From contig JAAOMT010000335.1 in assembly GCA_016748015.1 (NCBI GenBank), positions 1-12,586 of the forward strand: a stretch of 12,586 nucleotides of DNA, read 5' to 3'. This document shows positions 1-12,586 of the stretch, piece after piece (position 1 is the stretch's first letter; the number at the start of each line of letters is the position of its first letter). Source of the stretch: Geosiphon pyriformis uo1 (Eukaryota; Fungi; Glomeromycota). The notes below the pieces were generated by a model. It searched no databases, was not told the DNA's origin, and saw nothing but the letters and a program-made list of their open reading frames with translations. The position numbers were made by a program, and so were the translations under genes.

Positions 1-640
1 TAGATGGGATGGTGGTGTGGGCATATGGGTGGTAAGGGGGCTACATTGGGGTATAGAGGTGGATATGGTGGGATAATTGGGTATGGGGCATGTGGGCACA
101 TTTTGACATGTTTGGTCTGGGTCTGGGCATATGGGGCCACATGGGGAATCTTGGGTATAGTGTGATTGGGGCCACATCGTGGCTATGGGGTAGAATATGG
201 GCATATTGTGGTAGTATGGGGCCACATGGGCTACAATAGGGGATGGGCATATGGGGAATGGTTGTGGTATGGGCATATTGGGGACTCTGGTTTGAGAGGG
301 CTACAATGGGATATGGGCATAGGGGCTACAATTTGGTGTGGGTGGTGGTATTGTGGGATAGCGCATATTGGGTGGTATCTGGCGTGATATGGGTATTGGT
401 GGCAGGTGCCACATGGTGGTTAGGGTTGCCACATTGGGCATATCGTGAGTATGGGCCACATCTTGGCAGATATGAGCTACATAGTGGTATAATGGGACAT
501 CTAGGGCAACATCCTGTTGCATATGGGTATTGGATGCCACATAGGGCATATCGGGTGGTGTATATGGGTATAGGGCAATGGTTGGGATAGGGATAGGGTA
601 TAGTGGGATATGGGATACCTCTAGTGGCATAGGGACTACA
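1..640 (+). repeat. Distal end of the G/T-skewed arm (also shown at 10187-10826)
   Basis: Same vocabulary as 6830-10186. The first 60 nt contain 29 G, 16 T, 12 A and 3 C. Composition switches abruptly at ~640. Confidence 0.9.
463..493 (+). promoter_or_regulatory. Possible sigma70-type promoter upstream of the structured region
   Basis: TTGGCA (463-468), a 19-nt spacer and TATAAT (488-493) with the extended TG (TGGTATAAT), ~155 nt upstream of unit 1 on the RNA strand. It could be chance in this composition, and the host domain is unknown. Confidence 0.2.
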
Positions 641-649
641 TGGATACTC

Positions 650-3125
650 AGCCTCATGCTTTACACCATCATGGTGGATGGTAACCCGACTAACTCGTAA
701 GTCATTCCGAATTAGCCCATACTCTACCCGCCCCGGGTAGTACGGTTGTGGAAGGCTTCAGCATCCCAACCCTAACTTTCTATTTGCCCCTCGGCCGTAC
801 CAAACGGCCTGAGGGTACTGCTAAGGGTTCGCCTTTGGTTGAAACAAAGGGTACAACCCAAAAGCTATCGGATAGTACTCTGGTTAGGAGCCTATAAGGT
901 CCGATTTAAGTCACAACCTTGTAGCATAACCTCCCAAACCTATCCTATGAATTAGGAAATGGATAAGATGGTTGTTATAGGAAACTATAAGATTTGAGAT
1001 AGAGTGGTGGATATGGTTAGGAGCACATGGTTAGTACTAGAGACAGGTCCCATCAAACCTCTTACTTAACCAAACAATCCCCTCCATGAACTGGTAATCC
1101 ATAATTATGGGTAGTCTTAGCTTGTCAGTCTCCGCTGCGGATGGCAAGACCCGTAACATGGTACTATACCATTGCGGCCAACCAACTTACTTCAACAAGC
1201 CCCCCATAACCTGAAGTCAGATCCTTTCGGGAAACCGAATAGTCTTTCTAAAGGTCCTTCATGAACACTGTCTAGTGGGGTGCTGACCATGATGGTTACT
1301 CCATATCCATACAGTGATTCAACTGTGCACTCTTCCCAATACGTTACAAGGGGGTGTGTAAGGTATTGGATGGACCACGCTGTACTCTCCCCGAACTCCC
1401 AAAGTTCATAGGTACAGGGCCCATTCGACTTTAACACCTATACTCTTGAGCAGCTTAGATAGGTCCATAACTGAGTAGTACGTTGGTAATATTGGTACTT
1501 TCAAAGAATACCTCCTCCTAATCACAAACCTCCCAAACATTTGGACCCGAAGTTTATCCTTAGAATGGTGCTTTATTTGGTAGGCTTCTATGGGTTACCA
1601 TAACCACACTACACACACCAAACCAGTCATCACATCTCACCAGTGTATTGGGTGCCTAAAATTAGAAACAGGCATCCGATCATACCAACCCGATCCTCGG
1701 TCTATCCACAAAGGATAGGGCGGAACAGGTATGGCTAAGTAGCTTCTAGGATATACACCCCCAAGATGGATTGTTGTCCACGCTTTGGCATAGTTCGGTG
1801 GCATGGTCAGATTCCTATCCCAATAGGAACCCCCCCACCAACCGGTTATACCTACCACTATTGCTTTAGACATGGCCGTCCGGTACACTCCCTAGGGGTT
1901 AGGGTAATGTACACTTCGGCCGTGGACACATCGGGGTCCCTTCCTACACTGAGGTATGCTTAAAGGATTGAGGTATCCTTGGACGGCATGAAGGGCCACA
2001 CGTGTGGTCATATAACTCAGTTCAGCCTTCCCCACTATTCAATGGTTATTGTGGGAGAAAGGCTTAGCCTAATCCTACATTAACCTTAACTGGGGGTTAG
2101 GGTAAATGGGAATTGGACTCCGATCCACGTATATCCCTGTATCGCTACCCATCTTATCTGTCACAGCCAAGGAACCAGTACTCTTACCCTCTCCAAATAT
2201 GGATTGGGTGTAGACAGATTATTCGGACTTACAGTACTACTCTCTTCATAAAGAAGGAGTTCTACCATAACTCAGTTACCTATACTTTAAGCTATAGGGA
2301 TAAGCTCTTGTAGTAATAGACTTAAGCCAACCGAACTCCCGTCCTCCTAAGGAAGTGTCCAGGTGCATAGTAGGTAGTCCATTGGGATGGGAACCCCCCC
2401 ATAGCACGGCAGCTCTGAGTGGTAACCACCATTTAGACTGTACGTGTCTCTAGATCCCTCCATTTGGCCCCTAATACGTCTGGAAGGCGTCGAAGGGTAT
2501 CCTCCTCCCCAGGTAACACGAATCCCCTGTACAACACCCTTACCCCCCCCCAAATTGGGGGGATAAGAAAGGGATTGCGATTACTCGCCATTACCTTACT
2601 CTTGCCTAATCGATGATTAGGCTGGAGTGGACAGGCTGGTTGGCTATCCACCAACTGTAAGATTCCTCAGTAATGAGAACTCTTAAATACTCCCCTTACA
2701 ATGGGGTTGATATTTGACCAGTTGTGGAGAACCTACCACTTGTCCGGGTACAGGGCTCGTAATACCTGGGGGGAACTATGTACCACTGTAATGTTACCAT
2801 CCCCACACTGAACCATCTATTGTGGCCAGGCGTAGGCAGTGGGACTGTATCCTTAGCCTTAAAGCTATGGTTCATGTAGGAACCCACGTGGTTCCCTTCC
2901 TATTGCCAAACAACCCCATGATGATTACAGTAGGTTACATTGAACACACACTTCTGGACTAAGGTTTGAGAGGACCTATAGGGTAAACCTTACCATAGGC
3001 ACCTTAGTCCCTTCCCCGGGATAAAGGTTCATCCGGTACAAGTAGTGGGGATCTCCCAGACTTGCTCAGGAAAGGGGGGCTTGTGCTGTAGCTGCATGTA
3101 CCAAACCAACTGTACACGTCTACAT
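650..3125 (+). ncRNA. Large structured RNA unit, copy 1 (~2.48 kb; A part 650-2657, B part 2658-3125); family unassigned
   Basis: Dense hairpins: CCCTC-GGCCGT-accaa-ACGGCC-t-GAGGG 788-815, TTATAG-gaaa-CTATAA 975-990, TTCGG-gaaa-CCGAA ~1226-1239, CTCA-gtaa-TGAG 2666-2677. Long-range helices ATGGTAACCC 678-687 / GGGTTACCAT 1592-1601 and AGAGTG 1001-1006 / CACTCT 1328-1333. Colinear anchors are shared with copies 2 and 3. Confidence 0.72.
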
Positions 3126-5399
3126 AGCCTGCATGCCTTGACACCATCATGGTGGATGGTAACCCATCGTCGGGAACAATACGATCTATGCTTAGTACCA
3201 CCCCACCCCCTTTTTAATGGGGCGATTGACCTTGGTAGCCTAAAGCATCCCGTCTCAATACGAACTTGCCCCCCCCCTCGGGTACCAAACCCTGAGGTGG
3301 AGGACAGCCAAGGGTCCCTGTATAGTATGGCGCTATACCATATCGGAGCCCTATTGATTAGATAGGTACTAATGTACGATTTGTCTAACCTGGTAGCTAT
3401 ATCATGCTACACCTTACTTCCCTTGTTAAATACAGGGATAGGTAAGTATGGAATCTGATCTAGTTTTACTGCACTAGCAGATTAGAGATAAAGTGGTATG
3501 GTCAATCGGGTCCTAAATAGATTGAATCTATAAAGGATACCCAACCCCCCCCCCCCCCAACTTTAACCACCACTCTTCTCCTAACTATAAAGGGGGGATA
3601 TAGTAGGATAGGACCCCTCTACACTACCTAATGGGTACCCAAACCCATCCTGATGTGGAGGGCCCTATTCGACTTGAACATCAATTCTACTTCTATATTA
3701 TCCTGGTGGGTCCAACAGGTTAAATACAAGAATGGTATTATCCAATCACTATACCAAACAACTTCCAATCAAACCAATAACTAATATTCCCTTTGCACAC
3801 CTACCTCTTAGCTAGTGGGGGATCCTCTCTAAAGTATAGGAGGATAAGCTATTTGGAAAGTTGGGTACATAGTAATGACCTATCAAAGGGCTCTAAACTA
3901 GTTCCCAGTGCATATCCCAGTCATTAATCTAACCATAACCATTTAATATAACAATCTTGAATCCCTACTCAGCGGGGTCCTTGACGTGTCCATGCCATGA
4001 GGGATCATATGGTATATGGCCAGTGCCTGAGGCTCGTTCCACATATGGAATGAGGCAGGGATTAGGGTCATGGGAATTACCCCTTCCCACCCCAATATAC
4101 CTTTGGGTTCCTGCCACGTCCATAAGTACTCTTCTTAGAGTCTTAACCTACTCGCGGAGGGACCACCTGTAAAGGTAACCGGTACTTAATCAATAGGTTA
4201 TTGTACATTTGTTACCACCGATCCATGTTTTGATTGGGCGTCCTCCCATGGGTGGGGTTCGTCAGGATGGTCACATATGGCATACCTATCGATCATAAAG
4301 GTATTACTTACCTCTTGGTAGATAGTAAGCACCTCATATTGGCAAACTCGGACTTGGAACTGGGGCATGAGTAGGAACAACTTATACACTTGTAGATCCC
4401 TAACCTAGGGATCCCTGCCCCACACTTAGTATAGTTGGAGATATAAAGTATCAATCTACTTAAGCCCCCACACTCCCATGGCCTTAGTAGACCAACAGGG
4501 ATTTGAGTAGGTAGTCCATTTGTGTGGGACCCTACAGGATTCAGAGTCCTGTGAAGGTCCCCCCATTACAGGCTGTGTGTCCCCTGTGTCTCTATCCATT
4601 TAGGCCCCGAAGACGGTTGTCAACCGTCGCGACGGGTATCCTCTTTAACAGGCAACCCGTGTACCCTGTCCGCCATGAGAGAGGGCTCCATAACTGGGGC
4701 CCCCCAACTCTCCCTCACTACCTGGGGACCTAGGTAATGAGAGGCAATTCTACTTTATCTCACCCCTATAATTAGGGGCGGATCCCCCAATCTGGTAGTC
4801 ATACAAGGTGGGGAGTCTAATGGATAGGCTGGTGGCTCTACACCTACTGTAAGACACCCTAGTAATAGGTATTGTCCGGATCCCTTACCACCCCTTCCGG
4901 GTGATTAAAGGGGGCTTTTGGGAGATCTGATTATACCCTATAGCCGATACACAGTAGTGAATGACCTCCTGCCCGTCCGTGCAGGACAGGGTCTTGTAAG
5001 GCCTGTTATCAACTTTTATCACTGCCTGAATCCAAAGTATCCGTCTTAGGCGTTCCCATGAAGTGTGGGTATCCTAAGTGCAGTGGGATAGCAAGTTCTG
5101 GGACCATCAGCCTAATTCAGCTTCCCTGGCTCATAACCGGGGGGGTTCGGGATGGGATAATATATCCATCCAACTCTCAGTTATTACCCCTTTGGACCAT
5201 ACAGAATGGATCGTAGATGGTGCAAAGTCAACAGGAACTAAGGTCTACTTGGTGGATAGGACCCTGGTACCACTGACCTACCTCCAGAGCACTTGTGCTC
5301 TACCAATGATTAGGGTTCATGTTGTACATACTGTCTTGACAGTCTGCGGAGGGATAGGGGCTGATGGCTAAGCTGCAGTGTCCGAACCCTTGCACACCG
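3126..5399 (+). ncRNA. Large structured RNA unit, copy 2 (~2.27 kb; A part 3126-4850, B part 4851-5399)
   Basis: Exact 25-mer ACACCATCATGGTGGATGGTAACCC at 3141-3165 = 663-687. Exact 15-mer AGTAGGTAGTCCATT at 4506-4520 = 2369-2383. CCTATTCGACTTGAACA ~3664-3680 vs CCCATTCGACTTTAACA ~1420-1436. TGGATAGGCTGGTGGCT..ACTGTAAGA ~4821-4854 vs ~2628-2662. Covarying hairpin CCTA-gtaa-TAGG 4858-4869. Confidence 0.72.
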
Positions 5400-6812
5400 T
5401 CTTCATGCCCTAGGATAACTTACCAATCCTTGGTGTGATTGACTACCCCTGTCGTCCGATACTAATCGGACGGTCGGGAAACTGGGCTCCCATAGGAGCC
5501 CCAGATGGCAGGGATCCGCCTCCCACCACTCCCCCCGTTTGCCCACTCGGTGGTACCAATCCCCTGAGGGTGCGGGCGATAGCATTCTGTCTTTAAGACA
5601 GTTTGGCACTCTGCCATATCGTAGTCTGTATTGATTAGATACCTACTGAGGTCCGATTTAAGTCCACCTGTAATCCAGCCTGATTGTCCACCCCCCTTAT
5701 TATGAGGGAATGGGGAAATAGGATAGGTGACTGGTGTGACTGCCATAGCAGGTTGAGATAGGATGGCGTACTTATTACTATGGTAGGGCCAGGTCATAAA
5801 CAACCTCCCTCCCAACAGCTACTTCCTTAATCGACCCCCACCCCAACCCGGTCCCCCTCATGAGCCCCTTTACAAGCAGAGGTAACTGTACTTGTCTACC
5901 CATACACCAAGGGGGGTGGAAGATTCAGGTGTATGAGTATACGCTTACCCCCCCCCACACGGGGAGTGTGGTAGTCCGTTGACTGGCTATCCCCACCGGA
6001 GGTTCTAATGAGGTCCCATTCGATCGGTTGGGAATCGACTATATGGTAACTGATATTTGGTTTATGCCCATGGCCTCCCCAAACTATCATAGAAGATAGC
6101 CCTTTTACCCAAACCATCCTTTCCATAGCCTAACAGGAGGTGTTATATTCTGGTAGGACCATTATGGACTCCCCACTGACCTTAAACGGTCACGGGTCCA
6201 GGACCCTATCGACTTTAACATAAGGACAACTCTCTGATCCCCTAAGGTCCTAGGAACTATCACATATTTAAATGTCTGGTAGGGGTAGGAAGATAAGGTC
6301 TAACAACCTGACAATAGTACCTTCTCAGAATAAGAACCCATTGTGCCCCCCCCTCACTTTGGAGGTATGGATATGTAAGGATATCCAAGTAGGTGAGTGG
6401 TATCAATAGCCCCAAACACCGGGCCCTAGGAATATAACAGCCTAGTGCCTATGCTAATCCTCATCCGAAAGGGATCCTACTATCATGTGGTAGTCGCCCC
6501 CCAACCACCATACCAAACCTTATACACCTCATAATCCCCTAGCCTCTCTACGTTGGTATACTATCACAGGTTTATACTGAGGCCTTTCCCTACAGTACAT
6601 CTAAGGAAGTGGCAAATGTAGTGGCTGGGTAGCACTCCTTTCCCAATGGAATCCGGGGTACCCCAGAACCTGGGATCTCCTACAGCCTCATGGCGCATTG
6701 TGTTGCTACCCCTGTACAGATACCTTGTTGGGTAAACCCTCTATCATAAGGGAAGATCCTTTACACAGTACTTATGGTTATTGTGGGCTTTAGGCCCCCT
6801 ACCTAGCCGTAT
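5400..6812 (+). ncRNA. Large structured RNA unit, copy 3 (~1.4 kb; A part only, shortened middle, no B part)
   Basis: Exact 16-mer AGGTCCGATTTAAGTC at 5649-5664 = 897-912. TATTGATTAGATA 5629-5641 = 3352-3364. CCCTATCGACTTTAACA ~6204-6220. CTAAGGAAGTG 6601-6611 = 2347-2357. CCCCTGTACA ~6709 vs ~2524. Closing helix GGCTGGGTAG 6623-6632 / CTACCTAGCC 6799-6808. Confidence 0.65.
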
Positions 6813-6829
6813 AAAGGCATATTTAAGGT

Positions 6830-9800
6830 AGTCATATGGTGGGATATAATGGGACATGGTGGAATATAGAGGGTGGTTATGGGGTATAGTGGATATAGGT
6901 ATAGTGGATGGGGTAGAATAGTGGGGCCACAGGGGGCATTTGTATATGGTGGCCACATTTTGTGCCACATGGTGGAATGGGAATACCTCTTGGTGGGCAT
7001 AAGGGTTGATATATAGGTCTAGGGACTACCTTTGGTTATATGGGCTACATAGGGTAGGGTCTAGGATACCACATGGGGATTCTAGAGGGTGATACATGGT
7101 GGCCTCTTTGTTGAAAGGTCCTTGTGTGCCACATCCGGGCATAGTGGTGAGGGATCTGGGGGTTAGATAGGGGTAGTGGGTGGTATTGTTGGGTAGTGGG
7201 TTCTTAGGGGCCACATGGGGCATTGGGTTGAGTGTCCCATCTTGTGGGTAGAGGGGACATGGTTTGTAGTGGGGCCACTGGGCATATTGGAAATAGTGTT
7301 ATAGTGGAATATGGTAGGACATGGGCTATTGGGTGGGATAGATGGGACATATGGGTATGGGGCAGATAGGGACTATTGTGTAGAGGTATTGGGGTAGTAA
7401 TGGGCAGATGGTGGTAATAGTGGTTGATAGTGGGATATTTACTATTAGGGGCCACATACTGTGGCAGTTGGGGTTTGGTGGGATAATGGGCTACATTGTG
7501 GGATCTAGTGGGTGTATGGTGGGGATCTTTAGTATTTGGTGCCACATCGGGCAACATTGGGGCTACCTAGTGGGGTAGTGGTTCATAGTGGGTTAGTGGG
7601 CTATAGTGGGATAGTGGGGCCACACTGTGGCACATGGTTGGGATCCTGTGAATAGGGGATCTAGGGTATGGGGATGCCACATCCTGTTGCAGATGGGTTT
7701 GTATGGGCCACACATTTTGTGGTATTTGGGTAGTATGGGGCTACAGAGGGAATGGTTGTTGGGCTACCTATGGGGCATAGGGCTATATTGTGTGTGGTGG
7801 ATATGAGCTAGAGTGCTACATAGGGCATAGGGCATATGGGATAGTAGTCGGGGATGGGTCATGGGGCAGATAGGGGATATCTGGGTATATAGGGCATCTG
7901 GGATAGGTATAGTGGGATATCCTGGTATGGGACAGGATGGGTCAGGGTCATAGGGGTATGGTTGGGCCACATAGGGCATATGGGCATCATATGGTAGTTG
8001 TGGTATAGGGGCATATGGTGGGACATATTGGATGCCCCAGGGCATAAGGGGTAGAATATGACATCCTCTGGGATATTTGGAGTATGGGGCCACATATGGC
8101 ATATGGGTCTAGGGAATGGTTGGGATAGTGCCCATCTTGTTTGGCTGGTATTCTAGGATATCACATAGTGTGATTGGTGAGATGCCCCATCTCAGGGCAT
8201 AGTGGCTATTAGTGGAATATGTAATATAGTGGTGGCACATGGTTGGATAGGGATACCACACGGGCATATGGTATGATGGGTAGTGGGTAATAGGGTAGAG
8301 TGGTTATGGGACATCATGGGAGTTATGGGATGGGTAGGTATGGGTCTGTCTCATATCATGTGTGGTATGGTATAGGATGTCTCCTATGGGGCTCTGGTAC
8401 CTAGGGCTTGGTTATTAGTGTGCCACATAGGTAGATGGGCATAGGGAGGTAGAATGGGGGCAGATTGTGGATACCACTTGGTCTATTGGGTAGTGGCCCC
8501 TCTGGGCATGGGTAGGTCACATCTTGTGGTATATGGGCACATAGTGGAAGTGGTGGGGAATCTGGGCATATGGGTGGGATATAGTGCCACATCTTTGGAC
8601 ATCTGGGACATTAGGGATACCAACATCGTGGTATATTGGGATGGGGAAGGGATAGTGGTTATGGGTATGGTGGGTAGAATGGGTATGTGATTGCCCATTG
8701 GGCATAGGGAGGTCTAGGGGATAGGGAAGGGTGGTTAGGGGGATAGAGGCCACATTTGGATTCTGAGGGGCCCTGGGGGCCTCTGTTGATGTGTCACCTA
8801 TGGGACCTGTGTGGTAGAGGGTCTGGGCACATTTGGCATAGTGGGTGGGGTACTCTGGGCACATGGTCTGGTCTGGGTATCTCATGGGTTATGTGGCATC
8901 TTTGTATGGGTTATAGTGGATGCCCAGGGGGCAGATAGAGGTCTAGTGGGGCCCCTTTTTGGCCCCTTTTGTGGGATATCCTATGAGTATGGTGGTAGAT
9001 GGTGGGATAGTTTGATTAGGTGGCATATCCTATGGGATCTAGTGCCACATCCATGTTGCTTGGGAGGTGCCACATAGGGCTCCATAGGTATAGGTGGATA
9101 GGGGCTATTGTGGAAGATATTGGATACCACCTCTTGTGGCACATTGGGATGGTAGGGATCTAGGGCTAGAGGATATAGGATGCCACATGGGGCATAGTAG
9201 GACATTGGATGCCCCCATCATATGGGAATAGTGGTAGGTATAGGTTCTTGTGGTTATGGTTGATAGGGCTACATAGGGTATCTGGGTGTATGGCACATAA
9301 TTGGCCACATCCTGTGCATAGTGGCATCATGTTGGATGGAGCTATTGTTGGTAGAGTAGTGTAAGGGTTGGTAGAGTAGTGGTATAGGGTAATATGGGTC
9401 TGGGGCCCTAGTTGTGGTATCTTGTGGCACATGGTACATATGGTGGGATATGGTGGTAATATTGTGCCACCTGGCTATGGGCTACATCATGTGGGTCTGG
9501 TGTGGTATATGGGTAGAGGGGCATGGTGGATATATTGGGTATTGTTTGGTGCCACATCGGGCACATTGGTTATTAGGGTGCCCCATTGTGGGATCTGGGT
9601 TGGAGTGTCACTATTGTTTGCCACATCATGTTGCATATGGTGGATACATTTGGTCATGGGTCTGGGGCCCCTTTGGTTTTGGGGCCAATGGGGGTTGGGG
9701 GTGCAAGTGGGGGCCAATTTGGGTTTGGGGAATTGGTGTTGGGGGGACCAATTTGTGTGGGTTGGGGGGCCAATTTGGGTTGGGGGTAATTGTGTTTGGT

Positions 9801-10186
9801 GTCCAATGGTTGGGCCAGTTGAATTTGCGTTGAATTTGTGTTTGGGGACCAATTGGGGTTGGGCTAATTTGGTTTGGGGGGCCTATTTAGAATTTTGGGT
9901 GGGTTTGGGAATTTGGGTTTTGGCCTATTTGTGGGGCCAACTTGGGAATTTTGGGTGTCAATTGGGATGGGTTTGTGGCCAATTTGGAATTTGGATTGGC
10001 CATTGGTGTCAATTTTGATGGTGGTGGGCCTCTTGGGAATTTGGGTTGGGCACATTTGGTGGATATGGTAGAGTTTGGACATTGGGGATATGGGCGATTT
10101 GGTATTGGTGGGATAGGCAGTGGGCCACATGGGGCATATAAGTGATATGGTGGGATAGAGAGTGTGCCACATGTTGGATGTGGTGG
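6830..10186 (+). repeat. G/T-skewed low-complexity arm of dispersed short words; continues through the origin into 1-640 (~4 kb total)
   Basis: C is rare and mostly confined to the words GCCACAT, GCTACA, GGCACAT, GGGCATA, GGATCT and GGATAC. Roughly 50-60 GCCACA/GCTACA/GGCACA-type words by eye, all on one strand and in mixed reading frames. Longer recurrences include GGTGCCACATCGGGCA(A)CATTGG at ~7538 and ~9548. Confidence 0.9.
9680..10050 (+). repeat. Degenerate (CC/G)AATTTGGG / GTTTGGG repeat subdomain with dense G-runs
   Basis: AATT cores at 9716, 9731, 9750, 9772, 9788, 9822, 9833, 9851, 9866, 9891, 9910, 9947, 9960, 9981, 9988, 10011 and 10038, flanked by G-runs. The GCCACAT word is absent here. 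Confidence 0.8.
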
Positions 10187-12586
10187 TAGATGGGATGGTG
10201 GTGTGGGCATATGGGTGGTAAGGGGGCTACATTGGGGTATAGAGGTGGATATGGTGGGATAATTGGGTATGGGGCATGTGGGCACATTTTGACATGTTTG
10301 GTCTGGGTCTGGGCATATGGGGCCACATGGGGAATCTTGGGTATAGTGTGATTGGGGCCACATCGTGGCTATGGGGTAGAATATGGGCATATTGTGGTAG
10401 TATGGGGCCACATGGGCTACAATAGGGGATGGGCATATGGGGAATGGTTGTGGTATGGGCATATTGGGGACTCTGGTTTGAGAGGGCTACAATGGGATAT
10501 GGGCATAGGGGCTACAATTTGGTGTGGGTGGTGGTATTGTGGGATAGCGCATATTGGGTGGTATCTGGCGTGATATGGGTATTGGTGGCAGGTGCCACAT
10601 GGTGGTTAGGGTTGCCACATTGGGCATATCGTGAGTATGGGCCACATCTTGGCAGATATGAGCTACATAGTGGTATAATGGGACATCTAGGGCAACATCC
10701 TGTTGCATATGGGTATTGGATGCCACATAGGGCATATCGGGTGGTGTATATGGGTATAGGGCAATGGTTGGGATAGGGATAGGGTATAGTGGGATATGGG
10801 ATACCTCTAGTGGCATAGGGACTACATGGATACTCAGCCTCATGCTTTACACCATCATGGTGGATGGTAACCCGACTAACTCGTAAGTCATTCCGAATTA
10901 GCCCATACTCTACCCGCCCCGGGTAGTACGGTTGTGGAAGGCTTCAGCATCCCAACCCTAACTTTCTATTTGCCCCTCGGCCGTACCAAACGGCCTGAGG
11001 GTACTGCTAAGGGTTCGCCTTTGGTTGAAACAAAGGGTACAACCCAAAAGCTATCGGATAGTACTCTGGTTAGGAGCCTATAAGGTCCGATTTAAGTCAC
11101 AACCTTGTAGCATAACCTCCCAAACCTATCCTATGAATTAGGAAATGGATAAGATGGTTGTTATAGGAAACTATAAGATTTGAGATAGAGTGGTGGATAT
11201 GGTTAGGAGCACATGGTTAGTACTAGAGACAGGTCCCATCAAACCTCTTACTTAACCAAACAATCCCCTCCATGAACTGGTAATCCATAATTATGGGTAG
11301 TCTTAGCTTGTCAGTCTCCGCTGCGGATGGCAAGACCCGTAACATGGTACTATACCATTGCGGCCAACCAACTTACTTCAACAAGCCCCCCATAACCTGA
11401 AGTCAGATCCTTTCGGGAAACCGAATAGTCTTTCTAAAGGTCCTTCATGAACACTGTCTAGTGGGGTGCTGACCATGATGGTTACTCCATATCCATACAG
11501 TGATTCAACTGTGCACTCTTCCCAATACGTTACAAGGGGGTGTGTAAGGTATTGGATGGACCACGCTGTACTCTCCCCGAACTCCCAAAGTTCATAGGTA
11601 CAGGGCCCATTCGACTTTAACACCTATACTCTTGAGCAGCTTAGATAGGTCCATAACTGAGTAGTACGTTGGTAATATTGGTACTTTCAAAGAATACCTC
11701 CTCCTAATCACAAACCTCCCAAACATTTGGACCCGAAGTTTATCCTTAGAATGGTGCTTTATTTGGTAGGCTTCTATGGGTTACCATAACCACACTACAC
11801 ACACCAAACCAGTCATCACATCTCACCAGTGTATTGGGTGCCTAAAATTAGAAACAGGCATCCGATCATACCAACCCGATCCTCGGTCTATCCACAAAGG
11901 ATAGGGCGGAACAGGTATGGCTAAGTAGCTTCTAGGATATACACCCCCAAGATGGATTGTTGTCCACGCTTTGGCATAGTTCGGTGGCATGGTCAGATTC
12001 CTATCCCAATAGGAACCCCCCCACCAACCGGTTATACCTACCACTATTGCTTTAGACATGGCCGTCCGGTACACTCCCTAGGGGTTAGGGTAATGTACAC
12101 TTCGGCCGTGGACACATCGGGGTCCCTTCCTACACTGAGGTATGCTTAAAGGATTGAGGTATCCTTGGACGGCATGAAGGGCCACACGTGTGGTCATATA
12201 ACTCAGTTCAGCCTTCCCCACTATTCAATGGTTATTGTGGGAGAAAGGCTTAGCCTAATCCTACATTAACCTTAACTGGGGGTTAGGGTAAATGGGAATT
12301 GGACTCCGATCCACGTATATCCCTGTATCGCTACCCATCTTATCTGTCACAGCCAAGGAACCAGTACTCTTACCCTCTCCAAATATGGATTGGGTGTAGA
12401 CAGATTATTCGGACTTACAGTACTACTCTCTTCATAAAGAAGGAGTTCTACCATAACTCAGTTACCTATACTTTAAGCTATAGGGATAAGCTCTTGTAGT
12501 AATAGACTTAAGCCAACCGAACTCCCGTCCTCCTAAGGAAGTGTCCAGGTGCATAGTAGGTAGTCCATTGGGATGGGAACCCCCCC
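10187..12586 (+). repeat. Second copy of 1-2400 (wrap-around overlap of a circular contig)
   Basis: Start, end and all translated ORFs are identical to 1-2400. The overlap is a round 2,400 nt, which suggests it was added during windowing. Confidence 0.93.
10836..12586 (+). ncRNA. Wrap-around duplicate of the first 1.75 kb of structured unit 1
   Basis: Identical to 650-2400 at an offset of 10,186. Confidence 0.65.

Follow-up and report, generated by a model that had tools for sequence, protein, structure and literature searches.

A 10.2-kb apparently protein-free element with three paralogous, putatively RNA-folding units and a G/T-rich arm

What can a 10.2-kb unit carry if it appears to encode no protein? 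The question is raised by a window of 12,586 nt (the whole stretch that was analysed, positions 1 to 12,586 of the forward strand of contig JAAOMT010000335.1, Geosiphon pyriformis uo1), which holds a unit of 10,186 nt that assembles as a circle and is divided into a domain at 635-6808 and a G/T-rich arm. The domain was found by self-alignment to consist of three co-oriented paralogues, A, B and C, which are 60-67% alike in collinear blocks and in which base pairs are kept despite divergence. GNRA tetraloops are biased towards the + strand of the element, and sister contigs repeat its motif order. The explanation put forward here, tentatively, is a multi-copy DNA circle that its host replicates, that belongs to a small family within that host and whose + strand would be transcribed into giant folded RNAs; the circle, the DNA nature and the transcription of the element are predictions. 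Judged by its sequence, this is a real, strange and uncatalogued non-coding element from one sample, and comparison gives good evidence both of conserved RNA structure and of sister molecules.

Three paralogous units and their folds

The units, all on the + strand, measure 2.5 kb (A, 635-3112), 2.3 kb (B, 3113-5385) and 1.4 kb (C, 5386-6808, truncated). In all three, a module m1 is followed by a module m2, with a gap between them in A and C; A and B add a variable region, then a module m3 and a tail. After m2, unit C continues into a region in which no m3 can be recognised, and over the last 580 nt of the unit folding is at chance level. Short words resembling the start of m3 occur in order within the last 600 nt of C (6400-6420, 6487-6496 and 6789-6798), and the end of this unit is possibly a decayed m3 that was cut off by the arm. 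The original prediction had described a single giant structured domain and had overlooked this tandem array of three diverged copies. Its 6.2-kb base-paired region was confirmed in part: sections of it do fold, but the folding is not uniform, as only 11 of 31 200-nt windows reached z-scores of -2 or below (mean -0.9). The paired fraction of the domain (0.44-0.65) was near that of shuffles. Folding z-scores were -6.8 for m3 of A, -4.4 for the variable region of A, -3.7 for m3 of B, -3.3 for m2 of B and -3.2 for m1 of C, and the tails, the gap of C and the variable part of C folded at chance. Hairpins of at least six Watson-Crick pairs numbered 32, against 12.1 ± 3.7 expected.

Covariation was observed in m2 (1325-1445 in A, 3568-3689 in B, 6112-6229 in C), which comprises two adjoining conserved hairpins followed by the invariant sequence UCGACUU-K-AACA. 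Nine of 21 predicted pairs were changed on both sides, and at one position the three copies have three different Watson-Crick pairs. Because the m2 structure had come from the same alignment, it was re-predicted on 200 column shuffles, which gave p 0.005 both for energy and for double changes; the upstream hairpin gave p 0.005 and 0.025 in the column-shuffle control. A covariance model of m2, built without the outer helix, which overlaps the upstream hairpin, recovered exactly three copies.

The module m3 (2310-2790 in A, 4448-5030 in B) is predicted by folding and a covariation scan to form a multi-pseudoknot domain. When m3 of A and m3 of B were folded separately, the same long-range helices were obtained, namely Px (2459-2464/2626-2631 in A, 4595-4600/4819-4824 in B), Ha (2507-2514/2764-2771 and 4646-4653/5001-5008), Py (2520-2524/2661-2665 and 4659-4662/4854-4857), Hb (2525-2532/2748-2755 and 4664-4671/4984-4991) and Pz (2652-2657/2719-2724 and 4844-4849/4952-4957). 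Helix Ha ranked first in an unbiased scan, with eight of eight pairs formed in both copies and four double changes, and its score of 12 compares with a maximum of 10 in 40 shuffles. Hb, Pz and Py were Watson-Crick paired throughout in both copies (8/8, 6/6 and 4/4, with 1, 1 and 2 double changes), giving eight double changes in total for these long-range helices of 8, 8, 6 and 4 pairs. These helices use different bases and can coexist, Px and Py crossing them as pseudoknots. A GNRA hairpin (2666-2677 in A, 4858-4869 in B) is also kept, with two double changes, and a third variant of it was found in a sister contig at the 2666 position. The conserved sequence UCCAUU occurs twice in m3 (2377-2383 and 2459-2464; in B 4514-4520 and 4595-4600), and each copy can pair with 2626-2632; the one partner strand shared by two copies suggests a conformational switch. 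The match to a sister contig breaks precisely at 2629, which is what compensation in the second UCCAUU pairing would predict, if both pieces belong to one contig.

The order of the m3 helices in A and B resembles that of a group I intron: P3(5′), P4/P5, P7(5′), an insert, P3′, P8, P7′ and a GNRA-capped P9. For the comparison, the group I consensus positions of P7 were used. In the P7-like helix a G-C pair is invariant and is preceded by a C, and the helix contains two double changes. At the guanosine site, the pair before the bulge is A-C in one copy and C-C in the other, and the A-U pair after the G-C becomes U-A in B. The P6′ strand is taken by Ha and the J8/7 strand by Pz, both of which are better supported there, and by inspection neither a P1 U-G pair nor a terminal G common to A and B was found. 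The Rfam models of group I, group II and GIR1 matched neither the whole unit nor any of the three units, and the would-be exons around m3 matched no protein or rRNA in Pfam, PDB and rRNA searches. As to GIR1, a 5-bp pairing like P15 is possible in m3, but it is invariant and competes with the covarying Pz; P10 fails in register, and no endonuclease ORF was found in the open reading frame (ORF) list or with Pfam. The GUGYG and domain V words of group II introns do not stand at equivalent places across the copies. Module m3 may have descended from a group I fold, though it fails several of the tests that define group I, and it is probably not a splicing intron.

Conserved blocks of m1 (655-1010 in A, 3132-3500 in B, 5404-5770 in C) were delimited by self-alignment and paralogue comparison, and an invariant 5-bp loop-loop pairing is predicted between 672-676 and 798-802 of A. 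A 25-nt block of m1 is identical in A and B (663-687 and 3141-3165); within it, a 13-bp near-palindrome can form either of two hairpins, and at 1286-1296 there is a related palindrome of 11 bp. The 25-nt block could be a DNA-binding or recombination site rather than an RNA structure. Readings of m1 and m2 as group I, group II domain V/VI or RNase P were rejected, because the features were missing from some of the copies or local hairpins were a sufficient explanation. The variable region (1446-2300 in A, 3691-4440 in B) showed no detectable homology between the copies; its z-score in B was -2.5. In A it contains a long imperfect inverted repeat at 1992-2138.

The best evidence for the strand and for RNA came from tetraloops. 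GNRA loops on stems of at least four pairs numbered six on the + strand, against 0.86 expected (p 0.005, 200 shuffles), while the controls gave one GNYA loop against 1.0 expected and one GNRA loop on the - strand against 1.0 expected. A bias seen on the + strand only points to + strand RNA. With this bias and the covariation between paralogues, the earlier suggestion that the cargo is RNA structure gained real support; the host- or helper-dependent replicon proposed with it remains an inference.

Coding potential, arm and assembly

The claim of an apparently protein-free unit survived each coding test (ORF length, shuffles, Pfam, PHROGs and NCBIfam). The longest ORF (table 11) has 198 aa and sits in an A-poor part of the arm. 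An ORF under an alternative code, which the original prediction had allowed for, was not indicated, as the longest stop-to-stop frames stayed at the level of 60 composition-matched local Markov shuffles under seven stop-codon sets (p 0.51-0.79). None of six read-through frames matched Pfam and none of 16 ORFs matched PHROGs or NCBIfam. The best phmmer match of the three + frames in PDB (E 0.019) ran across stop codons and was rejected, and no Rep, polymerase or capsid ORF was found by ORF, Pfam, PHROGs, NCBIfam and PDB searches. The window contained no tRNA or tmRNA. Rfam did not match the whole unit; searched singly, units A, B and C gave eight matches (E 3.6-9.3), far under the gathering scores and regarded as chance, so that no family, self-cleaving ribozymes included, reached beyond chance level. 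Words resembling rRNA, 10 11-mers against 5 on the reverse strand, gave no alignment and were likewise taken as chance. Neither Rfam nor three profiles detected rRNA homology, and the best match of nhmmer to E. coli rrnH had E 0.33; an rRNA or rDNA circle is excluded.

The search for relatives that had been proposed with the original prediction yielded nothing beyond chance in plasmid, phage, IMG/VR, JGI and GTDB collections, eukaryotic ones lying outside the search. Neither the domain nor the arm matched any of 72,556 plasmids or 50,697 phages by blastn. Exact-motif scans of IMG/VR gave 0, 5, 50, 1, 0, 0 and 1 loci, and scans of JGI and GTDB, for the exact m2 motif only, gave one locus each; all were judged to be chance after checking by blastn, profile search or inspection, the last locus by composition alone. 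Exact-pattern scans of this kind miss diverged relatives. A literature search, mostly without subscription papers and supplements, returned no description of such an element.

The arm runs from 6809 across the junction to 634 (6809-10186 and 1-634), about 4.0 kb in all. Its G/T richness and strand skew proved real in composition and change points, and the split from the domain is as sharp as had been claimed, with skew change points at 634 and 6808. The composition is G38/T30/A21/C12 (G-rich on the + strand), and observed-to-expected CpG is 0.07, compared with 0.39 in the domain. Words and autocorrelation revealed a broad quasi-period of 9-10 nt from the short recurring words GCCACAT, GGGCATA and GGGATA; self-matches were limited to four, of 21-32 nt, indicating a degenerate micro-repeat and not a tandem array. 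G-quadruplex patterns over the whole arm numbered 18 on the + strand and none on the - strand. A sub-domain at 9661-10060 uses a different repeat word (AATT 17 times, CCACAT 0 times) and folds with z -3.8 on the + strand and -0.4 on the - strand. These 400 nt consist of GGCCAATTT-type words at a spacing of about 15-22 nt, possibly a separate element that binds proteins or acts as an origin. Throughout the unit (1-10186), GpC is low (0.54 in the domain, 0.87 in the arm) beside CpG, and TpA and GG/CC are enriched, a possible signature for finding the host.

The 10,186-nt periodicity was borne out by the exact recurrence of 1-2400 at 10187-12586, with 0 mismatches in self-alignment. As the overlap has a round length (2400 nt), this second pass was probably a wrap added during windowing of a record already called circular, and it offers no independent proof of a circle. 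The predicted circle is a feature of the assembly only, and its junction was not spanned by any contig among the 8 of 111 pieces listed. The assembly graph branches, and unitigs end, at motifs common to the window and to other contigs of sister molecules; 2630-2683, for example, has two entries and two exits. The depths at this branch pair as in the window (149.9 to 141.3; sister 195.9 to 216.8), if both sister contigs belong together. Depth, which in assembly records is not copy number, was 125-150 over the domain and 46-102 over the arm.

The element was found in one sequencing run; no RNA run was listed with it and two other runs of the sample yielded 0 records, which weighs neither for nor against. 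Among 55 records from this run, 34 fitted the window in part and 24 (share 0.44) continued unlike it. At least seven domain contigs repeated the motifs of the window in unchanged order, at depths of 121-217, unlike the 125-150 of the window itself; four of them join the end of a unit to m1 or m2 of the next, and further contigs represent reshuffled arms. The same motif order at similar depth indicates a small family of molecules, with at least two sisters if these are built like the present unit. Known from short pieces only, the sisters have in common with the window, among the matches listed, short blocks (about 20-55 nt) and a single stretch of 144 nt that is about 80-90% alike. The only long sister stretch visible lies at 4946-5089, where a sister contig of depth 128 aligns with 19 listed substitutions and 2 insertions.

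Molecule type and competing explanations

The similar depth of domain, arm and sisters would suit DNA segments better than independent RNAs, and we lean towards DNA because unit, arm and sisters lie in a narrow range of depth and because the composition is TpA-rich and CpG-poor. A host polymerase would enter at the border of arm and domain near 635 and read A, B and C. The transcript would then fold into modules, among which m3 would be a compact multi-pseudoknot that may cut or scaffold RNA. G-rich non-template strands favour R-loops, so that an origin and a zone of recombination may plausibly lie in the arm: transcription through it might give rise to R-loops and G-quadruplexes that prime replication, and these might also drive the slippage and recombination by which the arm is reshuffled. 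Units would be duplicated within and between circles and be kept by selection on shape. The compartment would, as a weak first guess, be a eukaryotic organelle, because the composition is poor in CpG and GpC and rich in TpA and because the element is absent from prokaryote and virus collections.

Several results weigh against this explanation. Regarding the folds, the consensus structure of m1 in blocks m1a-d was not significant on the + strand, inter-module helices did not rise clearly above crossed controls, and m3 helices with two double changes numbered 7 against 3.9 ± 2.0, which was not significant. The covariation comes from two to three copies only. Regarding the strand, folding z-scores were no better on the + strand than on the - strand, internal G-T against A-C counts were 9 and 7, and Ha, Hb, Pz and Py are free of G-U pairs, so that they cannot distinguish RNA from DNA or one strand from the other. 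Regarding the molecule, no read or contig among those listed crossed the circle junction, branching at shared motifs may have made the assembled path chimeric, and the sole run that holds the element may be the source sample itself; the library type of that run is a guess, and the case for RNA is drawn from sequence.

The element may not be a free circle at all: the assembler may have closed the unit of a tandem array, a section of some larger molecule, or a path that is chimeric between several related molecules. The RNA units would then still be real, but would sit in a chromosome or in an organelle genome and have the arm for a spacer. The round overlap, the unitig breaks at shared motifs such as 2630-2683 and the lower depth of the arm all suit this account. 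It is nevertheless judged unlikely, though worth serious weight, since the depths at 2630-2683 pair as the window does (on the same condition as above), the sister depths spread more widely than one molecule should give and, among the matches listed, no joint or loose end was shown to lead into unrelated gene-bearing sequence. Another candidate is an RNA replicon: a very large circle of viroid type, which a polymerase of the host or of a helper would copy and whose folded modules would act as cis signals or be new ribozymes. It would agree with the RNA-type loop bias, the lack of a protein and a library type that is not on record. TpA enrichment, here 1.3-1.4, is unusual for RNA replicons, no self-cleaving ribozyme or Rfam family was seen beyond chance (best E 3.6), no rod-like fold was found, complementarity between arm and domain was at chance (k = 8-12) and the sister depths fall within a two-fold range; together with the size of Obelisks, which are about 1 kb and protein-encoding in the portions of the sources consulted, this makes an RNA replicon rather improbable.

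The modules might instead be a cluster of tandem, ORF-less ribozymes or introns derived from group I, whose splicing or cleavage releases or circularises the intervening sequence. The helix order of m3 and the invariant G-C pair after C in its covarying P7-like helix speak for such a cluster, but the silent Rfam models, the A-C or C-C pair before the bulge and the swapped A-U, the lack on inspection of a shared P1 U-G pair or terminal G, the use of the P6′ and J8/7 strands by Ha and Pz and the unmatched exons leave it doubtful. An organellar minicircle of a known type (kinetoplast guide-RNA, diplonemid, dinoflagellate or red-algal), with a small gene piece that was missed, seems very unlikely. 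Several related molecules at like depth and a G/T strand skew would be expected of one, and the consulted parts of the literature describe Vickermania circles that are non-coding and 15-22 kb long, and circles of diplonemids, 2-12 kb in size, that carry modules of 40-540 bp. Against this, the CSB3 12-mer has 0 copies here and GC is about 49%, compared with AT-rich HL-circles; in those same parts, diplonemid and red-algal constant regions are near-identical, where the present sisters share short blocks only, and large covarying RNA folds are not mentioned.

Relation to known systems

To our knowledge, protein-free replicons described so far are smaller than about 1-2 kb, and the large non-coding circles described are organellar pieces serving guide RNAs or gene fragments. 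It appears distinctly possible that the element stands for a protein-free replicon of a new class, in which circles of 10 kb form a family and carry arrays of paralogous kilobase-sized folded RNAs not described before; m3 would perhaps be a new large ribozyme derived from group I, and the arm, prone to G-quadruplexes and R-loops, would serve maintenance. That 6 kb of a 10-kb element are given to three copies of a folded RNA would imply an RNA whose function is so strong that it can sustain a replicon lacking proteins of its own. The domain would offer a large new RNA fold that exists in natural variants, and perhaps a catalytic RNA of a new kind. A whole class of this kind would escape protein-based searches, and the RNA family stays uncatalogued even if the circle is an effect of assembly. 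As an RNA, the element would far exceed in size every viroid-like genome known to us.

The giant bacterial and phage non-coding RNAs GOLLD, ROOL and OLE are large, pseudoknotted and GNRA-bearing, and lie inside gene-bearing genomes. The present units are like them in size, pseudoknots and GNRA loops, but are unmatched in Rfam and are diverged paralogues arrayed in tandem on a unit without genes. Viroids, Obelisks and ambiviruses are also apparently circular and rich in RNA structure, as far as the consulted parts of the sources go; they are much smaller and rod-like or ribozyme-bearing, and Obelisks and ambiviruses encode proteins, whereas no rod or known ribozyme was found here.

In the available parts of PMC2219692 and PMC4167309, GIR1 is described with P7 tethered to P9 without a linker A and C=G as the first P7 pair (PMC2219692), and with a P10-P15 stack containing a G-U pair, a 3-nt J15/7 and a homing endonuclease gene downstream in the twin-ribozyme intron (both sources). 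Like group I and GIR1, m3 shows helices that cross in the P3/P7 manner and a hairpin resembling P8, and its P7-like 3′ strand is followed at once by a GNRA hairpin. Unlike them, it is without the first P7 pair and has the additional long-range helices Ha, Hb and Pz; a shared splice-site U-G, a terminal G, a homing endonuclease gene and an rRNA host gene were not found.

Among organellar circles, the parts consulted describe Vickermania HL-circles as AT-rich, CSB3-bearing, non-coding and 15-22 kb long (PMC12012515) and diplonemid circles as 2-12 kb long with modules of 40-540 bp (PMC7049700); the mitochondrial circles of diplonemids and Stylonematophyceae have a constant region more than 90% identical over more than 100 bp around a unique cassette (PMC7049700, PMC10250338). 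These systems are alike in that one cell holds several related molecules of several to 20 kb that are mostly or wholly non-coding, so far as the same parts report. The present element differs in that CSB3, AT-richness, a near-identical constant region and a gene module were not found, and in that its cargo looks like large folded RNA.

The Varkud satellite (VS) plasmid/RNA of Neurospora, which is named in the available part of PMC2950038, comes nearest in logic. The present element is distinguished from it by its length of 10.2 kb, its three diverged units of 1.4-2.5 kb, its 4-kb G-rich arm and the lack of a match to the VS model of Rfam. VS is a protein-free, helper-dependent circle of about 0.9 kb with one small self-cleaving ribozyme, and the element described here is likewise a protein-free circle with a folded RNA product, both circle and product being predicted in this case.

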